A stretch of 32,000 bases of DNA from an uncultured bacterium (GTDB lineage: Bacteria; Margulisbacteria; WOR-1; CAVSGV01). Numbering within the stretch: position 1 is the stretch's first letter; each line of letters opens with the position of its first letter. The stretch spans positions 810,001 to 842,000 of the forward strand of contig OY969425.1 of the NCBI GenBank assembly GCA_963699255.1, given 5' to 3'. A program made the position numbers and the translations under genes. This document shows positions 10,090 to 23,170 of this stretch, piece by piece. The notes under the pieces are model-generated. The model searched no databases. It saw nothing but the letters and a program-made list of their open reading frames with translations, and had not been told where the DNA came from.

Positions 10090-13000
10090 TTATATGATTT
10101 GAACCGCAATCCAGTTTGTTGGATGGCTTGCGGAGTTGCTGCTGTCAGTTATTTGGACGTTATTTCCGGATAAACCACAGGAGATACCTGTTGCCGTAAA
10201 TTCACTTTGGACCTTAACATGATAGGTACTGTCATAGGCATCCCAGCGACAGAAAGCCAGCCATTTTCCGATGCCAAGCGTAGCCCCATAGTCTGCTGCC
10301 GGCCCTGAGGCGGTAATTTCCCACACTTCCGGGGCAGATCCTCCTAAAGTTAGTATAGTAGTAGCGCTGGTAGCAGTTATACTGCCGGAAGTTGTATAAA
10401 ACCCCGTGGCTTTCACGCTGCCACTTACCTCTAATAACTCTCCTGGAGTGTTCGTCCCTATACCCACATTCCCGGTTTTAAATATCGCACTATATGTGCC
10501 CCCTGCTATATCAACCTCATGAGGGGTGACACTATTATAAAAGACCCCTCCCCAACCACCTGAACTGTTAGCCTGTCCCAAGATGCCCTGGCCAGCTACG
10601 GTATTCCCTGCAATTGCACCATATGTAAAGTCACCAACTGAACTTCCGTTATTAACAGTCAACTTACTTCCTGGATTCGTCGTCCCGATGCCAACATTGC
10701 CTGTACCGCCGGCATTTACAAAAATTGAAGGTACAGCGCCTTCTAGAGTGGTTACCTGCAATTTCCCCGTCGGACTTGTCGTCCCTATACCAACGCTGCC
10801 CTGCAAAAGGGTTTTTGTAATTGAGCTGTTGCCCAATACAACTGCGTTTGATGCCGTCGCCTGCGCGCTGTATCCTATTGCGATGGCGTTTGTAAGGTTG
10901 TTAACCGAAGTATTGGCGCTCTCCCCAATGAAAACGCACTGATTATTGTTATCGAGTGTTGTTCCTGAATTGAATCCGGCGCGATAACCGAACCCCACAT
11001 TGTCGCTTCCGGTAGCGTTGCTGTACAAAGCGCCGTCACCCATAGCGGTATTGTTATTTCCCGTTGTGTTCATGTCGAGCGCGGGGTTTCCGACCGCCGA
11101 GTTCCTGCCGCCGCTTGTGTTGCTTGAAAGCGCGCCGAATCCCAGTGCCGTATTGTCGAAGCCGGTGCTATTGCTTCCAAGCACGTTATATCCAACGGCG
11201 GTATTGCCGCCGACCGACGTAGAGGTACTTCCGCCGGCATTGTATCCTATGAACGTCTCTTGAAATCCTGACGTATTATCAAAATCCATATTCAACGATG
11301 AGCTTTTAACTTGTAAAGTGTTATTCGGACTCGTCGTCCCGATGCCGACCCTATTATTAGCTGGATTAACAATTAATGCGGAAGAATCCACAGTAAGATA
11401 TCCGGTAGTCGAGATATTTATGGCTGAATTCAAGTCTGATCCAACTATCGTCCCATCAAGTATCGCGTCTGAGGTTACTGAACCTGTTCCCATATTCACA
11501 GCTGTTATCGTGTTGTTCGCTATAGCATCAGAAGTAACCGAATCCGACCCCATATTCGCTGCTGTTATCGTGTTGTTCGCTATCTTCGCTCCCGTAACAT
11601 TGGCATTGAGTATCTTTGCGGTTATTACCGCGTTTGATCCTATTGCATCTGCTGTCACTGAACCTGTTCCCATATTCGTCGCATTGATGGTGTTATTGGC
11701 TATAGCATCATTAGTCACTGAGTTTGTTCCCATATTCGCCGCTGTGATCGTGTTATTCGCTATCTTCGCTCCTGTTACATTGGCATTGAGTATCTTTGCG
11801 GTTATTACCGCGTTTGATCCTATTGCATCTGCTGTCACTGAACCTGTTCCCATATTCGTCGCATTGATGGTGTTATTGGCTATAGCATCATTAGTCACTG
11901 AGTTTGTTCCCATATTCGCCGCTGTGATCGTGTTATTCGCTATCTTCGCTCCTGTTACATTGGCGTTGAGGATCTTTGCGGTTATTACCGCGTTTGATCC
12001 TATTGCATCTGCTGTTACAGATCCTGTTCCCATATTCGCCGCTGTGATCGTGTTATTCGATATGGCTCCCGTAGTTACTACTCCACTCCCAAAATATGAT
12101 GCCTGTAACTTACCGACGCCTATTGTTGGGCTTGGATATGTCCCCGTCAAATCTCCTGAAGCGCTCCCTCCGGGCGCCACTCCTGATATTGTTGTGTTCG
12201 ATGCCGCCGTTAATCTCCCATCTGCATCTACCGTATATGTGCCAACTTGTGTAGCGCTCCCGTATGTCCCCGCTGTTACTGCTGTCGATGCCAGCGCGTC
12301 AGCTGTTACTGAGTTGGTTGCCATATTCGCTGCTACAATCGTGTTGTTCGCTATCGCATCATTAGTCACTGAATCTGAACCCATCTTGGATGCTGTGATC
12401 GTGTTATTGGCTATGGCTCCCGTAGTTACTACTCCACTCCCAAAATATGATGCCTGTAACTTACCGACGCCTATTGTTGGGCTTGGATATGTCCCCGTTA
12501 AGTCTCCTGAAGCGCTTCCCCCAGGTGCTACTCCTGATATTGTGGTATTTGATGCTGCTGTTAATCTACCATCAGCACCTACTGTATAGGTGCCGACCTG
12601 TGTAGCAGAACCGTATGACCCCGCTGTTACTGCTGTCGATGCTAATGCGTCTGATGTTACTGAACCTGTTCCCATATTCACAGCTGTTATCGTATTATTA
12701 GCTATCTTCGCCCCTGTAACATTTGCATTGAGGATCTTTGCGGTTATTACGGCATTTGATCCTATTGCGTCTGATGTTACTGATCCTGTTCCCATATTTG
12801 ATGCAGCGATCGTGTTGTTCGCTATCTTCGAGTTTGTAACTGCACCGGATGCGATAGTCGGGCTTGGATATGTTCCCGTCAGATCCCCTGAAGCGCTTCC
12901 TCCCGGGGCTACTCCTGATATTGTGGTATTTGATGCTGCTGTTAATCTACCATCAGCACCTACTGTATAGGTGCCGACCTGTGTAGCAGAACCGTATGAC

Positions 13001-16000
13001 CCCGCTGTTACTGCTGTCGATGCTAATGCGTCTGATGTTACTGAACCTGTTCCCATATTCACAGCTGTTATCGTATTATTAGCTATCTTCGCCCCTGTAA
13101 CATTTGCATTGAGGATCTTTGCGGTTATTACGGCATTTGATCCTATTGCGTCTGATGTTACTGATCCTGTTCCCATATTTGATGCAGCGATCGTGTTGTT
13201 CGCTATCTTCGAGTTTGTAACTGCACCGGATGCGATAGTCGGGCTTGGATATGTTCCCGTCAGATCCCCTGAAGCGCTTCCTCCCGGGGCTACTCCTGAT
13301 ATTGTGGTATTTGATGCTGCTGTTAATCTACCATCAGCACCTACTGTATAGGTGCCGACCTGTGTAGCAGAACCGTATGACCCCGCTGTTACTGCTGTCG
13401 ATGCTAATGCGTCTGATGTTACTGAACCTGTTCCCATATTCACAGCTGTTATCGTATTATTAGCTATCTTCGCCCCTGTAACATTTGCATTGAGGATCTT
13501 TGCGGTTATTACGGCATTTGATCCTATTGCGTCTGATGTTACTGATCCTGTTCCCATATTTGATGCAGCGATCGTGTTGTTCGCTATCTTCGAGTTTGTA
13601 ACTGCACCGGATGCGATAGTCGGGCTTGGATATGTTCCCGTCAGATCCCCTGAAGCGCTTCCTCCCGGGGCTACTCCTGATATTGTTGTGTTCGATGCTG
13701 CCGTTAATCTACCGTCAGCATCTACCGTATATGTTCCCACCTGTGTCGCGCTTCCGTATGACCCTGCTGTTACTGCTGTCGATGCCAAGGCATCTGCTGT
13801 TACTGAGTTGGTTGTCATCTTTGCCGCTGTAATGGTGTTATTCGCTATCGCATCAGAAGTCACCGAGTTCGTTCCCATTTTGACCGCTGTTATGGTGTTA
13901 TTCGCTATGGCTCCTGTAGTTACCACTCCACTCCCAAAATATGATGCCTGGATCTTACCGACGCCTATTGTAGGGCTTGGATATGTTCCCGTCAGGTCTC
14001 CTGAAGCGCTTCCTCCGGGCGCCACTCCAGATATTGTTGTGTTCGATGCTGCGGTTAACCTTCCGTCTGCATCTACCGTATATGTTCCCACCTGTGTCGC
14101 GCTTCCGTATGACCCCGCTGTTACTGCTGTCGATGCCAGCGCATCTGCTGTTACTGAGTTCGTTCCCATATATGATGCTTGGATCTTACCAACGCCTATT
14201 GTAGGGCTTGGATATGTCCCCGTTAAGTCTCCTGAAGCGCTTCCTCCGGGCGCCACTCCAGATATTGTTGTGTTCGATGCTGCGGTTAATCTACCATCAG
14301 CACCTACTGTATAGGTGCCGACCTGTGTAGCAGAACCGTATGACCCCGCTGTTACTGCTGTCGATGCCAGCGCATCTGCTGTTACTGAGTTTGTTCCCAT
14401 ATTTGATGCTGTTATCGTGTTATCAGCTATCTTCGCCCCTGTAACATTTGCATTGAGGATCTTTGCGGTTATTACGGCATTTGATGCTATTGCGTCTGAT
14501 GTTACTGAGTTCGTTCCCATATATGATGCCTGGATCTTACCGACGCCTATTGTAGGGCTTGGATATGTCCCCGTTAAGTCTCCTGAAGCGCTTCCTCCGG
14601 GCGCCACTCCAGATATTGTTGTGTTCGATGCTGCGGTTAACCTTCCGTCTGCATCTACCGTATATGTTCCCACCTGTGTCGCGCTTCCGTATGACCCCGC
14701 TGTTACTGCTGTCGATGCCAGCGCATCTGCTGTTACTGAGTTCGTTCCCATATATGATGCCTGGATCTTACCAACGCCTATTGTAGGGCTTGGATATGTC
14801 CCCGTTAAGTCTCCTGAAGCGCTTCCTCCGGGCGCCACTCCAGATATTGTTGTGTTCGATGCTGCGGTTAACCTTCCGTCTGCATCTACCGTATATGTTC
14901 CCACCTGTGTCGCGCTTCCGTATGACCCCGCTGTTACTGCTGTCGATGCCAGCGCATCTGCTGTTACTGAGTTCGTTCCCATATATGATGCTTGGATCTT
15001 ACCAACGCCTATTGTAGGGCTTGGATATGTCCCCGTTAAGTCTCCTGAAGCGCTTCCTCCGGGCGCCACTCCAGATATTGTTGTGTTCGATGCTGCGGTT
15101 AACCTTCCGTCTGCATCTACCGTATATGTTCCCACCTGTGTCGCGCTTCCGTATGACCCCGCTGTTACTGCTGTCGATGCCAGCGCATCTGCTGTTACTG
15201 AGTTCGTTCCCATATATGATGCTTGGATCTTACCAACGCCTATTGTAGGGCTTGGATATGTCCCCGTTAAGTCTCCTGAAGCGCTTCCTCCGGGCGCCAC
15301 TCCAGATATTGTTGTGTTCGATGCTGCGGTTAACCTTCCGTCTGCATCTACCGTATATGTTCCCACCTGTGTCGCGCTTCCGTATGACCCCGCTGTTACT
15401 GCTGTTGATGCCAATGCGTCTGATGTTACTGAACCTGTTCCCATATTCAAAGCTGTGATCGTATTATTTGCTATCTTCGATGTCGTAACCGCGCCGGATG
15501 CGATAGTGGGATTTGGATATGTTCCTGTTAGATCCCCTCCGGCGCTTCCCGCCGGATTAATAGTAACATTTGTAGCGCCTGTTATTCTCCCATCTGCATC
15601 TACTGTTATTAAAGTAGCTTGTGTAGTAGAGCCATATGTCCCGGCGGTTACTGCTGTCGGAGCTAACGCATCTGTTGTTACTGAACCTTTTCCCATATTC
15701 AAAGCTGTGATCGTGTTGTTCGCTATGGCTCCCGAAGTTACCACGCCACTTCCAAAATATGATGCCTGGAGCTTACCTACGCCTATCGTCGGATCTGGAT
15801 ATGTCCCCGTCAGGTCTCCTCCCGCACTTCCTCCTGGGGCTACTCCTGATATAGCAACGTTTGATGCACCTGTTAATCGTCCGTCTGCATCTACCGTTAC
15901 TAACGCAGATTGTGTTGTTGATCCATATGTACCGGCCGTTACTGTTGTCGATGCTAACGCGTCTGCCGTTACCGAATTTGTTCCCATATTCGCCGCTGTG

Positions 16001-16929
16001 ATCGTATTATTCGCTATCTTCGCTCCCGTGACATTGGCATTAAGGATCTTCACTGTTGTTACCGCGTTTGATGCTATATCAGCTGCCACTATTGTTCCAT
16101 CTAAAATAGCTCCTGTAGTTACCACTCCAGTTCCGAAATATGATGCCTGTAACTTTCCGGCTCCTATCGTCGGGTTTGGATATGTTCCTGTCAGAATCTC
16201 CTCCTGCGCTTCCTCCAGGCGCTACTCCTGATATTGTGGTATTTGATGCCGCCGTCAATCTCCCGTCCGCGTCTACCGTATATGTGCCCACCTGCGTCGC
16301 GCTTCCGTATGACCCCGCTGTTACTGCTGTCGATGCCAGCGCATCAGCTGTTACCGAGTTTGTTCCCATATTTGATGCCGTGATCGTGTTGTTCGCTATG
16401 GCTCCTGAAGTGACCGCTCCTGTTGTCAGCATTGCCGCAGTTATTGAAGCATTTGAAGGCGTTCTTGTATCTGAAAGTCTTGTGTCATCAGCAGTTACCA
16501 CATGACAAGCGGATGTATCAGCAGATGGAGTTTCAAGTGAAACAACACCTTGAACTGCAGTTGTCGCTGCTGTTGAACATGTCGTCGCGGTCCCCGATAA
16601 GGTAGAATAAGCCACAGATCCAGAACAGGCGGACGATATTCCTGAAAGAGCGGCATAATTAGCAGTTAAAGCAGTGTCGGCATTTACATTCGGTTCCCAT
16701 ATGAGCAGCCCAGAACCGTCGTTCTTTAAATATGTATTTGCGGACCCTTGTAAAGACGGCCAGGTATATATAAGCCCGTTAAATTTGATGTATGCGGCAT
16801 CCAGAGTGCCGGTAACCGTTATAGGCCCATTTACTGCTTCAGGGAACCGGGTCCCGGGCCTCCAGTTTGGATCGCCAGAGCCGGCACGCTCATCAAAATA
16901 AGGATCGCCCATATCACTGACCTTTTCAT
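10090..16929 (-). CDS. giant (~2,280 codon) secreted tail-fibre-like repeat protein, split into three reading frames by two 1-nt indels (pseudogene, phase variant or assembly error)
   Basis: Three consecutive pieces make one gene: a 32-codon ORF from ATG 16929 not listed in the ORF track (MKRSVIWAILILMSVPALA, SD aggaagggg), the 277-aa ORF 16079..16912, and the 2011-aa ORF 10090..16125. The signal peptide joins FPEAVNGPITVTG if 1 nt is added near 16845-16850. The repeat consensus GGDLTGTYPNPTIGAGKLQASYF is restored by deleting one A at 16195-16196. The body has more than a dozen GDLTGTYP(S/N)PTI modules. The C-terminal part has Hep_Hag/YadA-head-like NTA(V/L)G repeats and four VGIGTTxPxxxLxV motifs typical of tail-fibre-domain proteins. 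Confidence 0.8.
11461..12060 (-). repeat. coding tandem repeat, 180-bp unit (3.3 copies) made of three 60-bp subunits
   Basis: Sequence lines 11641-11760 and 11821-11940 are identical. 11761-11820 versus 11941-12000 differ at 2 nt. Every 60-nt block begins tat.gcatc and contains ttcccatattc. Encodes 60-aa units of IANNTITAANMGTNSVTNDA / IANNTINATNMGTGSVTADA / IGSNAVITAKILNANVTGAK. Confidence 0.9.
12527..13686 (-). repeat. coding tandem repeat, 381-bp unit, about 3.04 perfectly identical copies
   Basis: The antisense ORFs 12590..12970, 12971..13351 and the start of 13352.. are identical, as are the corresponding sequence lines. Identity begins at gctactcctg (12527) and ends near 13686. Confidence 0.9.
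13940..15405 (-). repeat. coding tandem repeats, 231-bp unit: ~1.5 copies at 13940-14290 and ~3.9 near-identical copies at 14504-15405
   Basis: Antisense ORFs at 14559, 14790, 15021 and 15252 are spaced exactly 231 nt apart and are virtually identical. The unit encodes 77 aa: GVAPGGSASGDLTGTYPSPTIGVGKIQASYMGTNSVTADALASTAVTAGSYGSATQVGTYTVDADGRLTAASNTTIS. Confidence 0.9.
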
Positions 16930-18024: not shown

Positions 18025-20532
18025 TTAATTATCTGTGCGCCCTATTTCTATCCAGCGGCCATGTGCGCCAAGAGAGGCCACATAGATAAGCTGCAGAATA
18101 TCACCTTTACCCAAGGTGAAAGGAGTCGCCGCAGAAAGTTGAAGGACATCTAATGTGTCATTATTGAATGTGACGCACTTCAGATCATCCGTCCCTATCA
18201 ATACAAGCATCTGGCCATCTGAGCCGGCGGCTATGGGAGGATTGGCCGTAATGGTTACCGGAACATCTTTCCCTCGTATCAAGAGCACCTTTTTGTTCAG
18301 CATATCCTTTGTGATGCCGCTGACATCTATATCGGTGAAGTCTGACGGCAGATAGCTGACGCTTCCCCTGACTTCCATGGTTGAATTAATTATTACTTCT
18401 CCGCTCACAGAGAGTGAATCTATGGTGCCTATCCCGGTAATGTTCGGGAATGATCCTGTCGCGAGATCCGCGTTGACGATGGTCCCGTTCAGTATCGCAT
18501 CTGATGTGACAGAACCCGTTCCCATATATGACGCCTGGATCTTGCCTGCGCCTATCGTCGGGTTTGGATATGTTCCCGTCAGATCTCCTCCAGCGCTTCC
18601 TCCCGGCGCTACTCCTGATATTGTCACATTTGTTGCGCCTGTTAATCTTCCATCCGCATCTACCGTCACTAATGTAGCTTGTGTTGCAGAACCATATGTC
18701 CCCGCTGTTACCGTTGTCGATGCCAGCGCATCCGCTGTTACTGAGTTTGTTCCCATATATGATGCCTGGATCTTACCGACGCCTATTGTCGGGTTTGGAT
18801 ATGTTCCCGTCAGATCCCCTCCAGCGCTTCCTCCCGGAGCTACTCCTGCTATGGTGGTATTTGATGCCGCCGTTAATCTTCCATCAGCACCTACCGTATA
18901 TACGCCAACCTGTGTCGCGCTACCGTATGACCCAGCTGTTACTGCTGTCGGAGCTAACGCATCTGTTGTTACTGAACCTGTTCCCATGTTAGATGCAGTT
19001 ATCGTATTGTTCGCTATCTTCGAGGTCGTAACCGCAGCGGATGCGATGGTCGGGTTTGGATACGTTCCCGTCAGGTCCCCTCCAGCGCTTCCTCCCGGAG
19101 CTACTCCTGCTATGGTGGTATTTGATGCCGCCGTTAATCTTCCATCAGCACCTACCGTATATACGCCAACTTGTGTTGCGCTACCGTATGACCCAGCTGT
19201 TACTGCTGTCGGAGCTAACGCATCTGTTGTTACTGAACCTGTTCCCATATTAGATGCAGTTATCGTATTGTTCGCTATCTTCGAGTTCGTAACCGCAGCG
19301 GATGCGATGGTCGGGTTTGGATATGTTCCTGTCAGGTCCCCTCCTGCGCTTCCTCCCGGAGCTACTCCTGCTATGGTGGTATTTGATGCCGCCGTTAATC
19401 TTCCATCAGCATCTACCGTATATGTGCCGACCTGTGTCGCGCTACCGTATGACCCAGCTGTTACTGCTGTCGGAGCTAACGCATCTGTTGTTACTGAACC
19501 TGTTCCCATGTTAGATGCCGTGATCGTGTTGTTCGCTATCTTCGAGGTCGTAACCGCAGCGGATGCGATGGTCGGGTTTGGATATGTTCCTGTCAGATCT
19601 CCGCCAGCGCTTCCTGCCGGCGCTACTCCTGATATCGTCACGTTAGATGCTGCCGTTAATCTTCCGTCTGCATCTACCGTATATGTGCCAACTTGTGTTG
19701 CGCTACCGTATGACCCAGCTGTTACTGCTGTCGGAGCCAATGCGTCCGCTGTTACTGAGTTCGTTCCCATGTTAGACGCGGTTATCGTATTGTTCGCTAT
19801 CTTCGAGGTCGTAACCGCAGCGGATGCGATTGTCGGATTTGGATATGTCCCTGTCAGGTCCCCTCCTGCGCTTCCTGTGCAGGTTGATGCAGTTCCCGCC
19901 AGGATAGCATAATTTGCATTAGTAGCATTATCAGCATTGGTAGCAGTATCAGCGCTAGTAGCATGACCTGCATTAGTAGCGCTATCAGCACTGGTAGCAT
20001 GGCCTGCATTAGTAGCACTATCAGCACTGGTAGCGTGACCTGCATTAGTAGCAGAATCAGCACTGGTAGCAGAATCAGCATGCCCGCCATTAGCAGTTCT
20101 TGCATTTGACATTCTGGTATCATTAGCAGTAACCACATTATAAGCATTTGTGTTAGATGAACTATCTTCAAGTGAAACGCCGCCGATCGTGGTCGTGTTT
20201 CCCGAGAGTAATTCGATCGTGCCTGTAGTAGTTATAGTCCCTCCGGAGAGTCCGGTGCCGATGTCGATCCGAGTTATTGTCCCGCCACTGACCGTTTCCC
20301 AGGTGAGCGACCCGGCGCCATTATTCGTCAAGTAAGTATTCGCGGCTCCCTGTAAAGAAGGCCAATGGTAAATGACCCCGTTCAACTTGGTATCTATCAC
20401 ATCAATTGTACTGGTAACCGTTAAAGGCCCCTTCACCGCTTCAGGAAATTCGGGCCCTCCACCACCAAGCTGGACCGCTAAAGCCGAGGAACTCATTATT
20501 CCCAAAAACAAAACAACTAACCACTTTTTCAT
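18025..20532 (-). CDS. secreted tail-fibre-like repeat protein (835 aa)
   Basis: Signal peptide MKKWLVVLFLGIMSSSALA. N-terminal module FPEAVKGPLTVTSTIDV..LNGVIYHWPSLQGAANTYLTNNGAGSLTWE. 36-bp His/Ser/Ala repeats. Six to seven GGDLTGTYPNPTI modules. The C-terminal ~95-aa domain ends IEIGRTDN and is shared with the 872-aa protein. SD AAGGGGG upstream. Confidence 0.8.
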   Translation of the reverse strand: MKKWLVVLFLGIMSSSALAVQLGGGGPEFPEAVKGPLTVTSTIDVIDTKLNGVIYHWPSLQGAANTYLTNNGAGSLTWETVSGGTITRIDIGTGLSGGTITTTGTIELLSGNTTTIGGVSLEDSSSNTNAYNVVTANDTRMSNARTANGGHADSATSADSATNAGHATSADSATNAGHATSADSATNAGHATSADTATNADNATNANYAILAGTASTCTGSAGGDLTGTYPNPTIASAAVTTSKIANNTITASNMGTNSVTADALAPTAVTAGSYGSATQVGTYTVDADGRLTAASNVTISGVAPAGSAGGDLTGTYPNPTIASAAVTTSKIANNTITASNMGTGSVTTDALAPTAVTAGSYGSATQVGTYTVDADGRLTAASNTTIAGVAPGGSAGGDLTGTYPNPTIASAAVTNSKIANNTITASNMGTGSVTTDALAPTAVTAGSYGSATQVGVYTVGADGRLTAASNTTIAGVAPGGSAGGDLTGTYPNPTIASAAVTTSKIANNTITASNMGTGSVTTDALAPTAVTAGSYGSATQVGVYTVGADGRLTAASNTTIAGVAPGGSAGGDLTGTYPNPTIGVGKIQASYMGTNSVTADALASTTVTAGTYGSATQATLVTVDADGRLTGATNVTISGVAPGGSAGGDLTGTYPNPTIGAGKIQASYMGTGSVTSDAILNGTIVNADLATGSFPNITGIGTIDSLSVSGEVIINSTMEVRGSVSYLPSDFTDIDVSGITKDMLNKKVLLIRGKDVPVTITANPPIAAGSDGQMLVLIGTDDLKCVTFNNDTLDVLQLSAATPFTLGKGDILQLIYVASLGAHGRWIEIGRTDN
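18540..19880 (-). repeat. coding tandem repeats, 231-bp then 261-bp units (about 5 copies, diverged a few percent)
   Basis: cgggtttggata.gttcc anchors recur at about 18551, 18790, 19051, 19312, 19573 and 19834. Antisense ORFs at 19041 and 19302 are 261 nt apart. The 87-aa unit is GGSAGGDLTGTYPNPTIASAAVTTSKIANNTITASNMGTGSVTTDALAPTAVTAGSYGSATQVG.YTV.ADGRLTAASNTTIAGVAP. Confidence 0.85.
19961..20068 (-). repeat. coding 36-bp tandem repeat x3 (NAGHATSADSAT)
   Basis: gcatgacctgcattagtagcgctatcagcactggta (19961-19996) is repeated at 19997-20032 and 20033-20068 with 2-5 substitutions. Degenerate copies flank the array. Confidence 0.85.
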
Positions 20533-20551: not shown

Positions 20552-23170
20552 TTAATTATCTGTCCTGCTGATTTCATACCAGGCATTATCAACCTGGTCA
20601 TATATACATATCATAGTATCTTTATTGCCAAAGGTAAAGGGTGAATTGCCGGATAGTATCAAGTAATTCCCAGGGTTGAACTTTACGGTATTTATATTGT
20701 CAGTGCCCCGCAGGATTATCATTTGCCCGTCCTCTCCAGGCGCGATCGGAGGGTCCGCCGTCACAACCACCGGCCCGCCATTTCCCGCGATGCGGATCAA
20801 TTTCTTATTCAACATTCCCGCTGTCAGACCCGAACTTGCATTAATATAATTTATCGATGACGACGGATAGATCACTTTTCCATCAGCCTTAAATGTACCA
20901 CCTACTTCTAGGTTCCCCCCCGCTTCTATGGTGACCGTGCCCACCGTAAGGTTGCCGGTCATGGTGTCGCCTGCCCTGAGGACCGCGGTCTCTGCACTGA
21001 TCGCCGAACCAGCTGATATTGCGTAATCCGCTGTTGCCGCATTCGTAGCTGTGACTCCCGATAAATTCGATCCGTTGCCAAAAAATGCTGCCGCAGTTAC
21101 AACACCAGTTGTGCTAATATTGATATTAGTCATAAGAGCGCTACCCGCTATCTTATTCGTGGCCGTGTCAACCTTGCTCCAGTCAACCCCTGATATTTGC
21201 GAATTAGATATACCTAAAGCTTTTACCTCAAGTGATTGATCACCATTCAGATCAACAGTGATATTATCGTATTTGTTTGTTGCAGCTTCACCAGTTGGAC
21301 CGATCGGGCCTTGAATACCTTGAATGCCCTGAATACCTTGGATACCTTGTGGACCTGCTTCTCCAGTCAATCCGATGGGACCTTGAGGTCCGATAGCTCC
21401 GGTCTCGCCAGTCGGACCGATGGGACCTTGAATTCCTTGAATGCCCTGGATCCCTTGAATGCCTTGCGGACCTTGAGGCCCTGCTTCTCCAGTTGATCCG
21501 ATAGGACCCTCAGGACCAACAGCACCAGTCTCACCGGTCAGACCGATTGGCCCTTGAATTCCTTGGATACCTTGTATGCCTTGCGGACCTTGAAGACCTG
21601 CTTCGCCAGTTAATCCGATAGGACCTTCAGGACCGACAGCTCCAGTCTCACCAGTTGGACCGATCGGACCTTGAATTCCTTGGATGCCCTGAATACCTTG
21701 GATACCTTGTGGACCTGCTTCTCCAGTTAATCCGATAGGACCTTGAGGTCCGACTGCGCCAGTCTCACCGGTCGGACCGATCGGACCTTGAATTCCCTGA
21801 ATACCTTGGATACCTTGTGGACCTTGAGGACCGACTGCACCAGTCTCTCCGGTCAGACCGATCGGACCTTGAATTCCTTGGATACCTTGTATGCCTTGCG
21901 GACCTTGAGGACCAGCTTCTCCCGTTACTATTGCCCAAACCGGATTTTGAGATGCGCCTTGAGTCTCTAAGTAGTACCCGCTGGTTCCTGCTGTAAGTCT
22001 GGCCCATTTCGATCCATCATAATACATCACATCACCTTGCGACGCGGCATCCGTTGTTACAACTGTTGACGATAACCTTGCATTGTCGATCGTCCCTGAA
22101 GTGATATTCGTTGCGTCCAGGTTGGTCAGTAAGTTGCCTCCTCCGTCTATGGACTTGTTAGTTAATGTTTGCGCGTCCGTTGTCGTTACGACCACGCTAG
22201 TATCGATCGTTAAAGTCCCTGTTATCATTATCGGACCTCCAAGCAATCCTCTGCTTGTATTTACCTGAGTAACAGTTCCGGTCCCTCCGGAGTTCACCCA
22301 GGTGAATTGATCCGATCCGCCGTAGCTTAGAACCTGCCCGTTGGCCGGCGAATTTGTGGCGTTCAGTTTTGGTTCAATGATCGAATCATTTGCTATCGCA
22401 TCCGAGGTTACTGATCCGGTCGCCATTTTCGATGCTGTGATCCCTCCATTAGCAACATCGAGCGTTCCCGAACTTGTTATCGGACCCCCTGTCAATGACG
22501 GTCCTGTATTGACAGACGTAACGGTTCCGCTGCCGCCTCCTATTGCAGAGATCTCGATCGTTTGCCCGCTTTGCAAGAGAGAGACATTCGTTCCGCCTTT
22601 AAGCGTTACTGTCCCAGTTAAAGCCGCCGCGTCGGATGAAGATATTCCTGTAACGGAAGCCGGAATAACTGAGGAAGAAAGTTTCCCCATTCCATCGGTC
22701 GTTGGAATGATGTTTGCCCCTGAAGCAGATATGGGATATCCCGCGGCTTTTGTCGAATCGTCGGCTTGAAGCGTCCTGTACGCGTGTGCCGCGCTAGCTA
22801 TCTGGATCCTTGGCGTCATTTCTCCGCCCGGCGGGACTTCAACTCCCAGCCACCTGTCCGTACCATCAAATACACTTGGTTGGAAAGCTATTATCGTGCT
22901 GAAGACACCATTGCTATCGGGGGTGAGAGTTTCTACGGATGTCCCGTTCGTGACAGGGACGCCGCCGCTTGCCTGGCTGTACATTCTGAAAGTAAAAGTT
23001 GTGGAAGTAGTCGCTGGGGTCCCGTCTAAATATGTCAGTCTGCCTTCATAACCTATTATTTGCGGTATCGCCGCGTAACATATCCCCGTTATGCCTATCC
23101 GGCTGCCGTCAGGAAAGCCCGGCAGGTCCGCCAGAGGCAGGCTGAAAGCGGACACCATTAATATGAACAC
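20552..23170 (-). CDS. secreted collagen-like / tail-fibre-like protein (872 aa; true start may be ATT 23194)
   Basis: The ORF begins mid signal peptide ([14 protein letters not shown]). In frame upstream, ATT ATT AAG AAG lies 7 nt after GAGGTG, which would give (M)[21 protein letters not shown]. Motifs: QTLTNKSI, 71 Gly-X-Y triplets, [23 protein letters not shown]. The C-terminal domain ends YEISRTDN. Confidence 0.8.
21284..21922 (-). repeat. collagen-like triple-helix region: 71 uninterrupted Gly-X-Y triplets (639 nt)
   Basis: Counted from the translation: [30 protein letters not shown] ... GPI GPT GEA, with no interruption. Higher-order unit of about 13-14 triplets. The DNA copies are diverged, unlike the perfect repeats of the giant gene. 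Confidence 0.9.

Follow-up and report, generated by a model that had tools for sequence, protein, structure and literature searches.

Two kinds of bacterial surface protein come closest to the gene described here. Periscope Proteins (SasG/Aap, Rib/alpha-C, Sgo_0707 SHIRT, Esp and CdrA; Whelan et al. 2021, PMC8201768) display a functional end domain on a stalk of long repeats whose DNA is highly identical, and the mosaic adhesive trimer (MAT) fibres of Bdellovibrio bacteriovorus (Caulton et al. 2024, PMC10769870) are chromosomally encoded, Sec-exported and phage-tail-fibre-like. We describe a giant repeat gene with features of both, on the minus strand of a 32,000-nt window from an uncultured bacterium (GTDB lineage Bacteria; Margulisbacteria; WOR-1; CAVSGV01; assembly GCA_963699255.1, contig OY969425.1, positions 810,001 to 842,000; coordinates below are those of this window unless stated otherwise). 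It is likely, in our judgement, to be a single chromosomal gene whose product, a surface fibre of ~2,280 residues, is Sec-exported and phage-tail-fibre-like, and its repeats of a DUF5907 unit and a ten-residue spacer motif to have been amplified by unequal homologous exchange.

The sequence screen for Periscope Proteins looks for repeats of >50 residues with at least 80% identity (PMC8201768); in the giant gene, identity is 100% among the 127-aa units, 98–100% among the 77-aa units and, at the protein level, 88–100% among the 60-aa units (92% in DNA by Tandem Repeats Finder, TRF). For Periscope Proteins as for this gene, intragenic recombination is the proposed route of length change, and long reads are needed to see the repeats. 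Periscope stalks, however, are made of independently folded globular domains, mostly within monomeric, wall-anchored proteins, whereas the modules here resemble those of phage fibres and, as monomers, are predicted not to be globular; the presumed binding tip here is C-terminal. The defining Periscope trait is a copy number that varies between strains, while the giant gene is known from one consensus sequence.

Like MAT fibres, the giant protein has paralogues that carry its own N-terminal domain after the signal peptide, and putative beta-helix modules with a V-G-...-P-x-x-x-L loop motif, one residue longer here than the MAT consensus V-G-G/N-small-x-x-P-x-x-x-L (PMC10769870). MAT tips vary and may or may not carry an S74 domain; the giant protein lacks one, as does the NS74 group. 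The DUF5907 unit is present in Bdellovibrio genomes too, at 58–76% identity. No sequence match to the solved MAT tips was found, and comparing the N-terminal domain with the N-termini of two Bdellovibrio DUF5907 proteins revealed no similarity (true MAT sequences not included). Perfect repeat arrays, as found here, have not been reported for MAT fibres. Phage tail fibre and receptor-binding proteins (in PHROG, and from uncultured Caudovirales in BFVD) have similar decamers and a similar DUF5907 core; the giant protein differs from these in having a signal peptide, and its gene in having no phage genes nearby.

Architecture of the fibre gene

The sequence-only reading had seen a giant fibre gene with a nested hierarchy of periodicities. 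The repeats and all of the periodicities were found, but the gene lies on the minus strand, is divided among three open reading frames (ORFs) as assembled and contains two 1-nt frame breaks, and its periods are not separate levels, being reducible to the DUF5907 unit and the decamer. A DUF5907 unit together with a 17-aa spacer makes up the 77-aa unit, one with a 67-aa spacer makes up the 127-aa unit, and six decamers form the 60-aa (180-bp) unit. Judged from these sequences, the 60-, 77- and 127-aa periods are best taken as tandem duplications of different ages and not as separate structural levels.

The reported 381-bp units (3.04 copies at 100% identity, 12527–13686) proved exact in a base-by-base self-comparison over 1,160 bp, and this array is the top-scoring long tandem repeat across the 1.77-Mb genome. 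The 231-bp units placed at 14504–15405 and 13940–14290 were recovered by TRF as 4.1 copies (14495–15446) and 2.0 copies (13939–14410), the larger array being perfect over 14762–15405, where units g05, g06 and g07 (numbered in the feature list below) are identical. The 180-bp and 60-bp units at 11461–12060 were likewise recovered, as 3.2 copies of 180 bp (11477–12057, 92%) and 4.8 copies of 60 bp.

The ten-residue pattern, with a hydrophobic residue at every fifth position, was borne out in 42 spacer decamers. Position 3 was I, M or F and position 8 was V or I in 100% of them, position 9 was T in 81%, and hydrophobic autocorrelation reached 0.53 at lag 5 and 0.44 at lag 10. Spacers between DUF5907 units are built of this decamer and are 17, 27, 37, 57 or 67 aa long, always 10n+7. 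The Pfam model of the unit, PF19264 (DUF5907), matched the giant protein in four stretches at 51 bits (Pfam cut-off 27). The features are as follows.

10090–16929, minus strand: whole fibre gene, defined by its ORFs and architecture; ~2,279 codons with both frame breaks read through
16873–16929, minus strand: Sec-type signal peptide; M-K-R, a hydrophobic core, then A-L-A
16847–16872, minus strand: frame break 1; one base missing between the cleavage region of the signal peptide and the conserved F-P-E-A-V motif, in a stretch with runs of C and G
16346–16846, minus strand: post-signal N-terminal domain of ~165 aa, common to the neighbouring 313-aa and 835-aa proteins
16193–16199, plus strand: frame break 2; one extra base, inside unit g01
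12121–16345, minus strand: 14 DUF5907 units, g01–g14, of 60 aa each (one is 57 aa)
14495–15446, minus strand: 231-bp (77-aa) array; 4.1 copies, 98% (TRF)
13939–14410, minus strand: second 231-bp pair, g08 and g09; 2.0 copies, 91% (TRF)
12479–13806, minus strand: 381-bp (127-aa) array; 3.5 copies, 97% (TRF)
11371–12120, minus strand: pure decamer tract of ~230 aa, including the 180-bp (60-aa) units
10093–11370, minus strand: C-terminal module and tip region of ~430 aa
18025–20532, minus strand: 835-aa paralogue; same N-terminal module, 5 DUF5907 units, 261-bp period with 4.2 copies at 92%

Along the protein, the signal peptide (which parallels that of the 835-aa paralogue) is followed by the N-terminal domain, the 14 DUF5907 units with their decamer spacers, the decamer tract and the C-terminal module and tip region. 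This last region combines Gly/Asn/Thr-rich repeats resembling adhesin head repeats with four V-G-I-G-T-x-x-P-x-x-x-L motifs. In its final 246 residues, residues 1–170 match thousands of giant proteins, while the last ~80 residues (10093–10330, minus strand) are matched by essentially one of 1.8 billion representative proteins, which is 158 aa long and 50% identical. Such a near-orphan terminus would fit a fast-evolving binding tip. The stalk is built of 60-aa DUF5907 units and 10-aa spacer repeats, with spacer length quantised at 10n+7 residues. We propose that this stalk would bear the repeated V-G-I-G-T...P...L modules distally and end in a rare tip that presumably binds a target.

A Pfam scan assigned the post-signal N-terminal domain to no family and found no match in the giant protein to PF13884 (Peptidase_S74), a C-terminal intramolecular chaperone domain marked by the motif S-D-x-x-x-K. 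Pfam and NCBIfam scans gave no YadA-type C-terminal membrane anchor of trimeric autotransporter adhesins, and there was no match in the giant protein to a type IX secretion system (T9SS) C-terminal sorting domain (TIGR04183 or related). The fibre gene is flanked by housekeeping genes (relA/spoT, proC, sepF and an nfnAB-like pair); with these neighbours and no phage genes close by, a prophage origin was rejected.

Origin and ages of the repeat arrays

The order in the 381-bp array is g10–spacer–g11–spacer–g12–spacer–g13, and all three 201-nt spacers are identical. Unit g11 is identical to g12, and each equals positions 1 to x of g13 joined to positions x+1 to 180 of g10, for any x from 108 to 125; the junction falls within an identical stretch common to g10 and g13. 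An exact chimera of the flanking units is the product expected of unequal crossing-over or template switching between units 381 bp apart. The sequence-only reading had proposed either very recent expansion or ongoing gene conversion. Expansion is upheld by these chimeric units and by the zero differences among the 381-bp copies; as each unit has ~105 synonymous sites and none of them differs, the event was very recent relative to the rest of the gene.

Conversion was upheld in part. In g08, one contiguous patch of the other haplotype spans unit positions 42–87 (clustering p ~1.5e-8), g09 has a short patch at unit positions 150–153, and g10 and g13 switch haplotype. The units are thus mosaics of two haplotypes, and exchange between them does occur. 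It has not homogenised them, however, as differences between unit families reach 34 of 180 nucleotides. These mosaics in g08 and g09 are the kind of conversion-like exchange that would be expected if concerted evolution among older copies, and not new duplication, had made the 381-bp units identical. Conversion would then have had to cover two whole 381-bp periods and to end exactly at the haplotype switch of the flanking units, and other unit families in the gene are up to 19% different in DNA, so homogenisation is not general. We regard this explanation as highly improbable.

Unequal homologous exchange, the explanation that we prefer, would act between neighbouring DUF5907 units and duplicate ‘unit plus spacer’ cassettes, and a second round of exchange would act on the perfect repeat left by the first. 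RecA is present and intact in the genome; perfect arrays should therefore gain and lose copies readily. The fibre, whose length the sequence-only reading had predicted to be hypervariable by unequal recombination, would then vary in length as Periscope Proteins do.

The gene also contains much older duplications. Units g04–g14 encode nearly identical protein and differ at up to 34 of 180 nucleotides; g05 and g11, for example, are separated by 31 synonymous and 3 non-synonymous differences (synonymous divergence, dS, 1.23; non-synonymous divergence, dN, 0.024; dN/dS 0.02). A pair of 57-aa spacers gave a dN/dS of 0.18. Among the 180-bp units, dS was 0.12–0.68 with 0–7.5 non-synonymous changes, units 1 and 2 differing by 5 synonymous and 0 non-synonymous changes. 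On these divergences, the 381-bp array, with zero substitutions, is the youngest, the 231-bp array nearly as young and the 180-bp array older, with the unit families themselves old. Ages graded from zero to synonymous saturation, all under purifying selection, argue that a gene with a long functional history has expanded repeatedly, and argue against both general homogenisation and long-term decay.

Frame breaks and the quality of the assembly

As assembled, the minus strand has a 32-codon signal-peptide frame that starts at the ATG at 16929 and halts at 16831–16833, a 277-aa ORF (16079–16912) and a 2,011-aa ORF (10090–16125), the last in the same frame as the signal peptide. After break 1, the protein resumes in another frame with an F-P-E-A-V motif, which in the 835-aa paralogue also comes after the signal peptide; a single base must therefore be lacking between ~16847 and 16872. 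At break 2, the plus strand reads AGAATCT at 16193–16199, where AGATCT is expected, and the minus strand gives G-G-D followed by ‘TCTGAC’, where all other units read G-G-D-L-T-G-T-Y-P. Unit starts are spaced 382 nt apart at this point and 381 nt elsewhere, an independent sign of one extra base.

The same class of error was sought across the genome by deleting the extra base at AGA[A]TCT and AGAT[T]CT sites, and at control 7-mer sites, and counting the ORFs that merged. Long ORFs merged at 8 of 148 AGAATCT/AGATTCT sites, compared with 7 of 789 controls (odds ratio 6.4, p = 8e-4). The eight merging sites lie at genome positions 122299, 570040, 573852, 742791, 748753, 826193, 1303768 and 1676689. 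At site 1,676,689, the ORF grows from 2,220 to 4,269 nt, the size of rpoC (a label taken from its position and not from homology). An extra base at AGATCT looks like a systematic consensus error, linked perhaps to a methylated site. Several of the eight sites sit in giant genes of 6–12 kb. GATC itself occurs 12,434 times in 1.77 Mb, ~1.8 times the expectation under equal base frequencies.

The break at 16193–16199 is thus probably an assembly or consensus error. The missing base at 16847–16872 may be one as well; independent support exists for the AGATCT break alone. The fibre gene is probably intact in the organism. Programmed frameshifting and phase variation were rejected, as there is no slippery or long homopolymer site and because the 16193–16199 break belongs to the error class that also splits the rpoC-sized ORF. 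Also rejected as genes were plus-strand ORFs of 423, 126, 126, 320 and 638 aa (11318–16231), because their starts follow the 381-bp lattice, mirroring the minus-strand repeats.

A true pseudogene, or a switched-off gene, would have genuine frameshifts, and its repeats would be relics free to expand. Two breaks do fall within ~700 nt at the 5' end, they cut the signal peptide off from the protein body, and DUF5907 fibres are accessory, with units in 1 of 40 related genomes searched. One of the breaks, however, is of the AGATCT-plus-one-base class that splits the rpoC-sized ORF and several other long genes, the remaining 6 kb are free of stops and further breaks, dN/dS is 0.02–0.2 in repeats of every age and the youngest arrays are perfectly in frame. 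A pseudogene is, on this evidence, distinctly unlikely.

The sequence-only reading had cautioned that copy number would be unreliable in a short-read assembly. This caution probably does not apply: the genome is a single 1.77-Mb contig in which single-base indels are systematic, the assembly retains single-base differences between near-identical repeat copies, and the single contig and the type of error point to a long-read consensus. The perfect identity, the copy number or both could still have come from assembly or polishing, through over-expansion, collapse or homogenisation by multi-mapped reads. Systematic single-base errors are indeed present, and the 381-bp array is an outlier, since arrays of the same modules at 77 loci of other phyla are 69–97% identical (median 81%). 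That status is partly a matter of ascertainment, because most comparison genomes are short-read metagenome-assembled genomes, which are unable to assemble perfect arrays. Moreover, isolated single-base differences survive in the 231-bp array, so repeats are not flattened by the pipeline in general; the array junctions are an exact in-frame chimera of the flanking units; and 1.2 kb is easily spanned by long reads. We consider such an artefact very unlikely.

Some observations weigh against an intact fibre gene expanded by homologous exchange. Real inactivation could be the cause of two frame breaks lying within 700 nt in one gene, and a single consensus sequence underlies the copy number, the perfect identity and the presumed population variability. 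The window of identity in which the crossover fell is only ~17–18 nt, short for RecA-dependent exchange; replication slippage or template switching would be an equally good route for the first duplication. The surface location and oligomeric state of the protein are inferred only.

Relatives, predicted structure and biological meaning

The DUF5907 unit with decamer flanks was found at 45–82% identity in Ignavibacteria, Kapaibacteria, Cyclobacteriaceae, Bdellovibrio, Patescibacteria, WOR-3 and others. Most of the long homologues, which go by the names ‘tail fiber domain-containing protein’ or ‘trimeric autotransporter adhesin’, have Peptidase_S74 at their end. The unit also occurs in >275 stretches of IMG/VR viral contigs, and the decamer spacers match PHROG tail-fibre families (phrog_892 at 1e-69; also PHROG 21412 and 28766); GenBank phage genomes gave no match at E <= 1e-5 to a 100-aa fragment made up of a DUF5907 unit and 20-aa flanks. 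The single carrier among the 40 related genomes belongs to the same class and a different family, and has the units in open frames of 4,833 and 2,172 aa. This patchy distribution suggests horizontal spread.

At the 77 loci of other phyla, 33 of 55 long arrays had periods of 171+30k nt, which makes the decamer quantum a rule of the family. An Ignavibacteriota genome has, in a DUF5907-carrying gene, a 360-nt array of 11.9 copies at 86% identity (L078:8122–12399); large arrays thus occur elsewhere in the DUF5907 fibre family. When JGI metagenome contigs were searched with the tip domain, its first ~50 residues alone matched and no conspecific locus was found.

AlphaFold2 modelled a spacer–unit–spacer monomer, with 54 homologues, as one beta-hairpin and an extended chain (predicted local distance difference test, pLDDT, 86; predicted template modelling score, pTM, 0.47), and the decamer tract as a weak periodic coil with no strands (pLDDT 69.5, pTM 0.35). 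Foldseek searches of the PDB with the unit and decamer-tract models gave no match. In BFVD, the DUF5907 hairpin core had matches among phage fibre and receptor-binding proteins, with identity reaching 68% over 38 residues and marginal E-values. A sequence search of the PDB returned nothing informative (a designed repeat protein at E = 7e-4, which is compositional, and the MyRF stalk at a non-significant E = 2.8). As monomer predictions, these results would fit an obligate-oligomer fibre, as in trimeric MAT and phage fibres, and are no proof of one. A pentapeptide-repeat beta-helix was rejected despite the period-5 pattern, there being no Pfam Pentapeptide match, no AlphaFold2 strands and no Foldseek match.

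Within the genome, DUF5907 units are confined to the giant gene and its 835-aa paralogue, which scores 70 bits with PF19264. Between the N-terminal domain and the first DUF5907 unit of this paralogue lies a 36-nt (12-aa) repeat of 4.2 copies, rich in Ser, Ala, Asp, Thr, Asn, Gly and His (19905–20081, minus strand). The paralogue has a C-terminal domain in common with a neighbouring 872-aa gene, which contains a collagen-like Gly-X-Y tract with 117- and 81-nt higher-order repeats at 79–90% identity (21309–21913, minus strand). The 291-aa downstream neighbour of the giant gene has only a sub-threshold T9SS sorting-domain match (18 bits, cut-off 23), and its exact protein is on no other contig on record.

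The preceding observations might be brought together by regarding the DUF5907-plus-decamer stalk as a quantised molecular ruler, although we hold this joint reading only tentatively and think it rather unlikely to be right in all its parts. Fibre length would change only by one 10-residue structural turn or by a whole cassette. Saturated synonymous recoding would shield old cassettes from recombination while the protein stayed constant, and new perfect arrays would serve as a fast, reversible length switch. The rule would be common to bacterial surface fibres and phage tail fibres across phyla, and the fibre system that it serves here would be an undescribed one, PorV-like/SLH-associated, in a Margulisbacteria-like bacterium.

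For annotation, the locus is a warning: the gene shows as three ORFs, probably through assembly errors, and the long antisense ORFs are artefacts. It brings no new principle, since repeat stalks of variable length are known, as are phage-like fibres of bacteria, and altering fibre length in this way is familiar among bacteria. It does provide a worked example of how a repeat-built fibre grows, in which chimeric junction units record unequal exchange, and the age series of its arrays indicates that expansion recurred while the protein stayed under strong purifying selection. The 10n+7 spacers and the 171+30k nt periods point to a rule that a trimer structure of the DUF5907/decamer stalk could explain.

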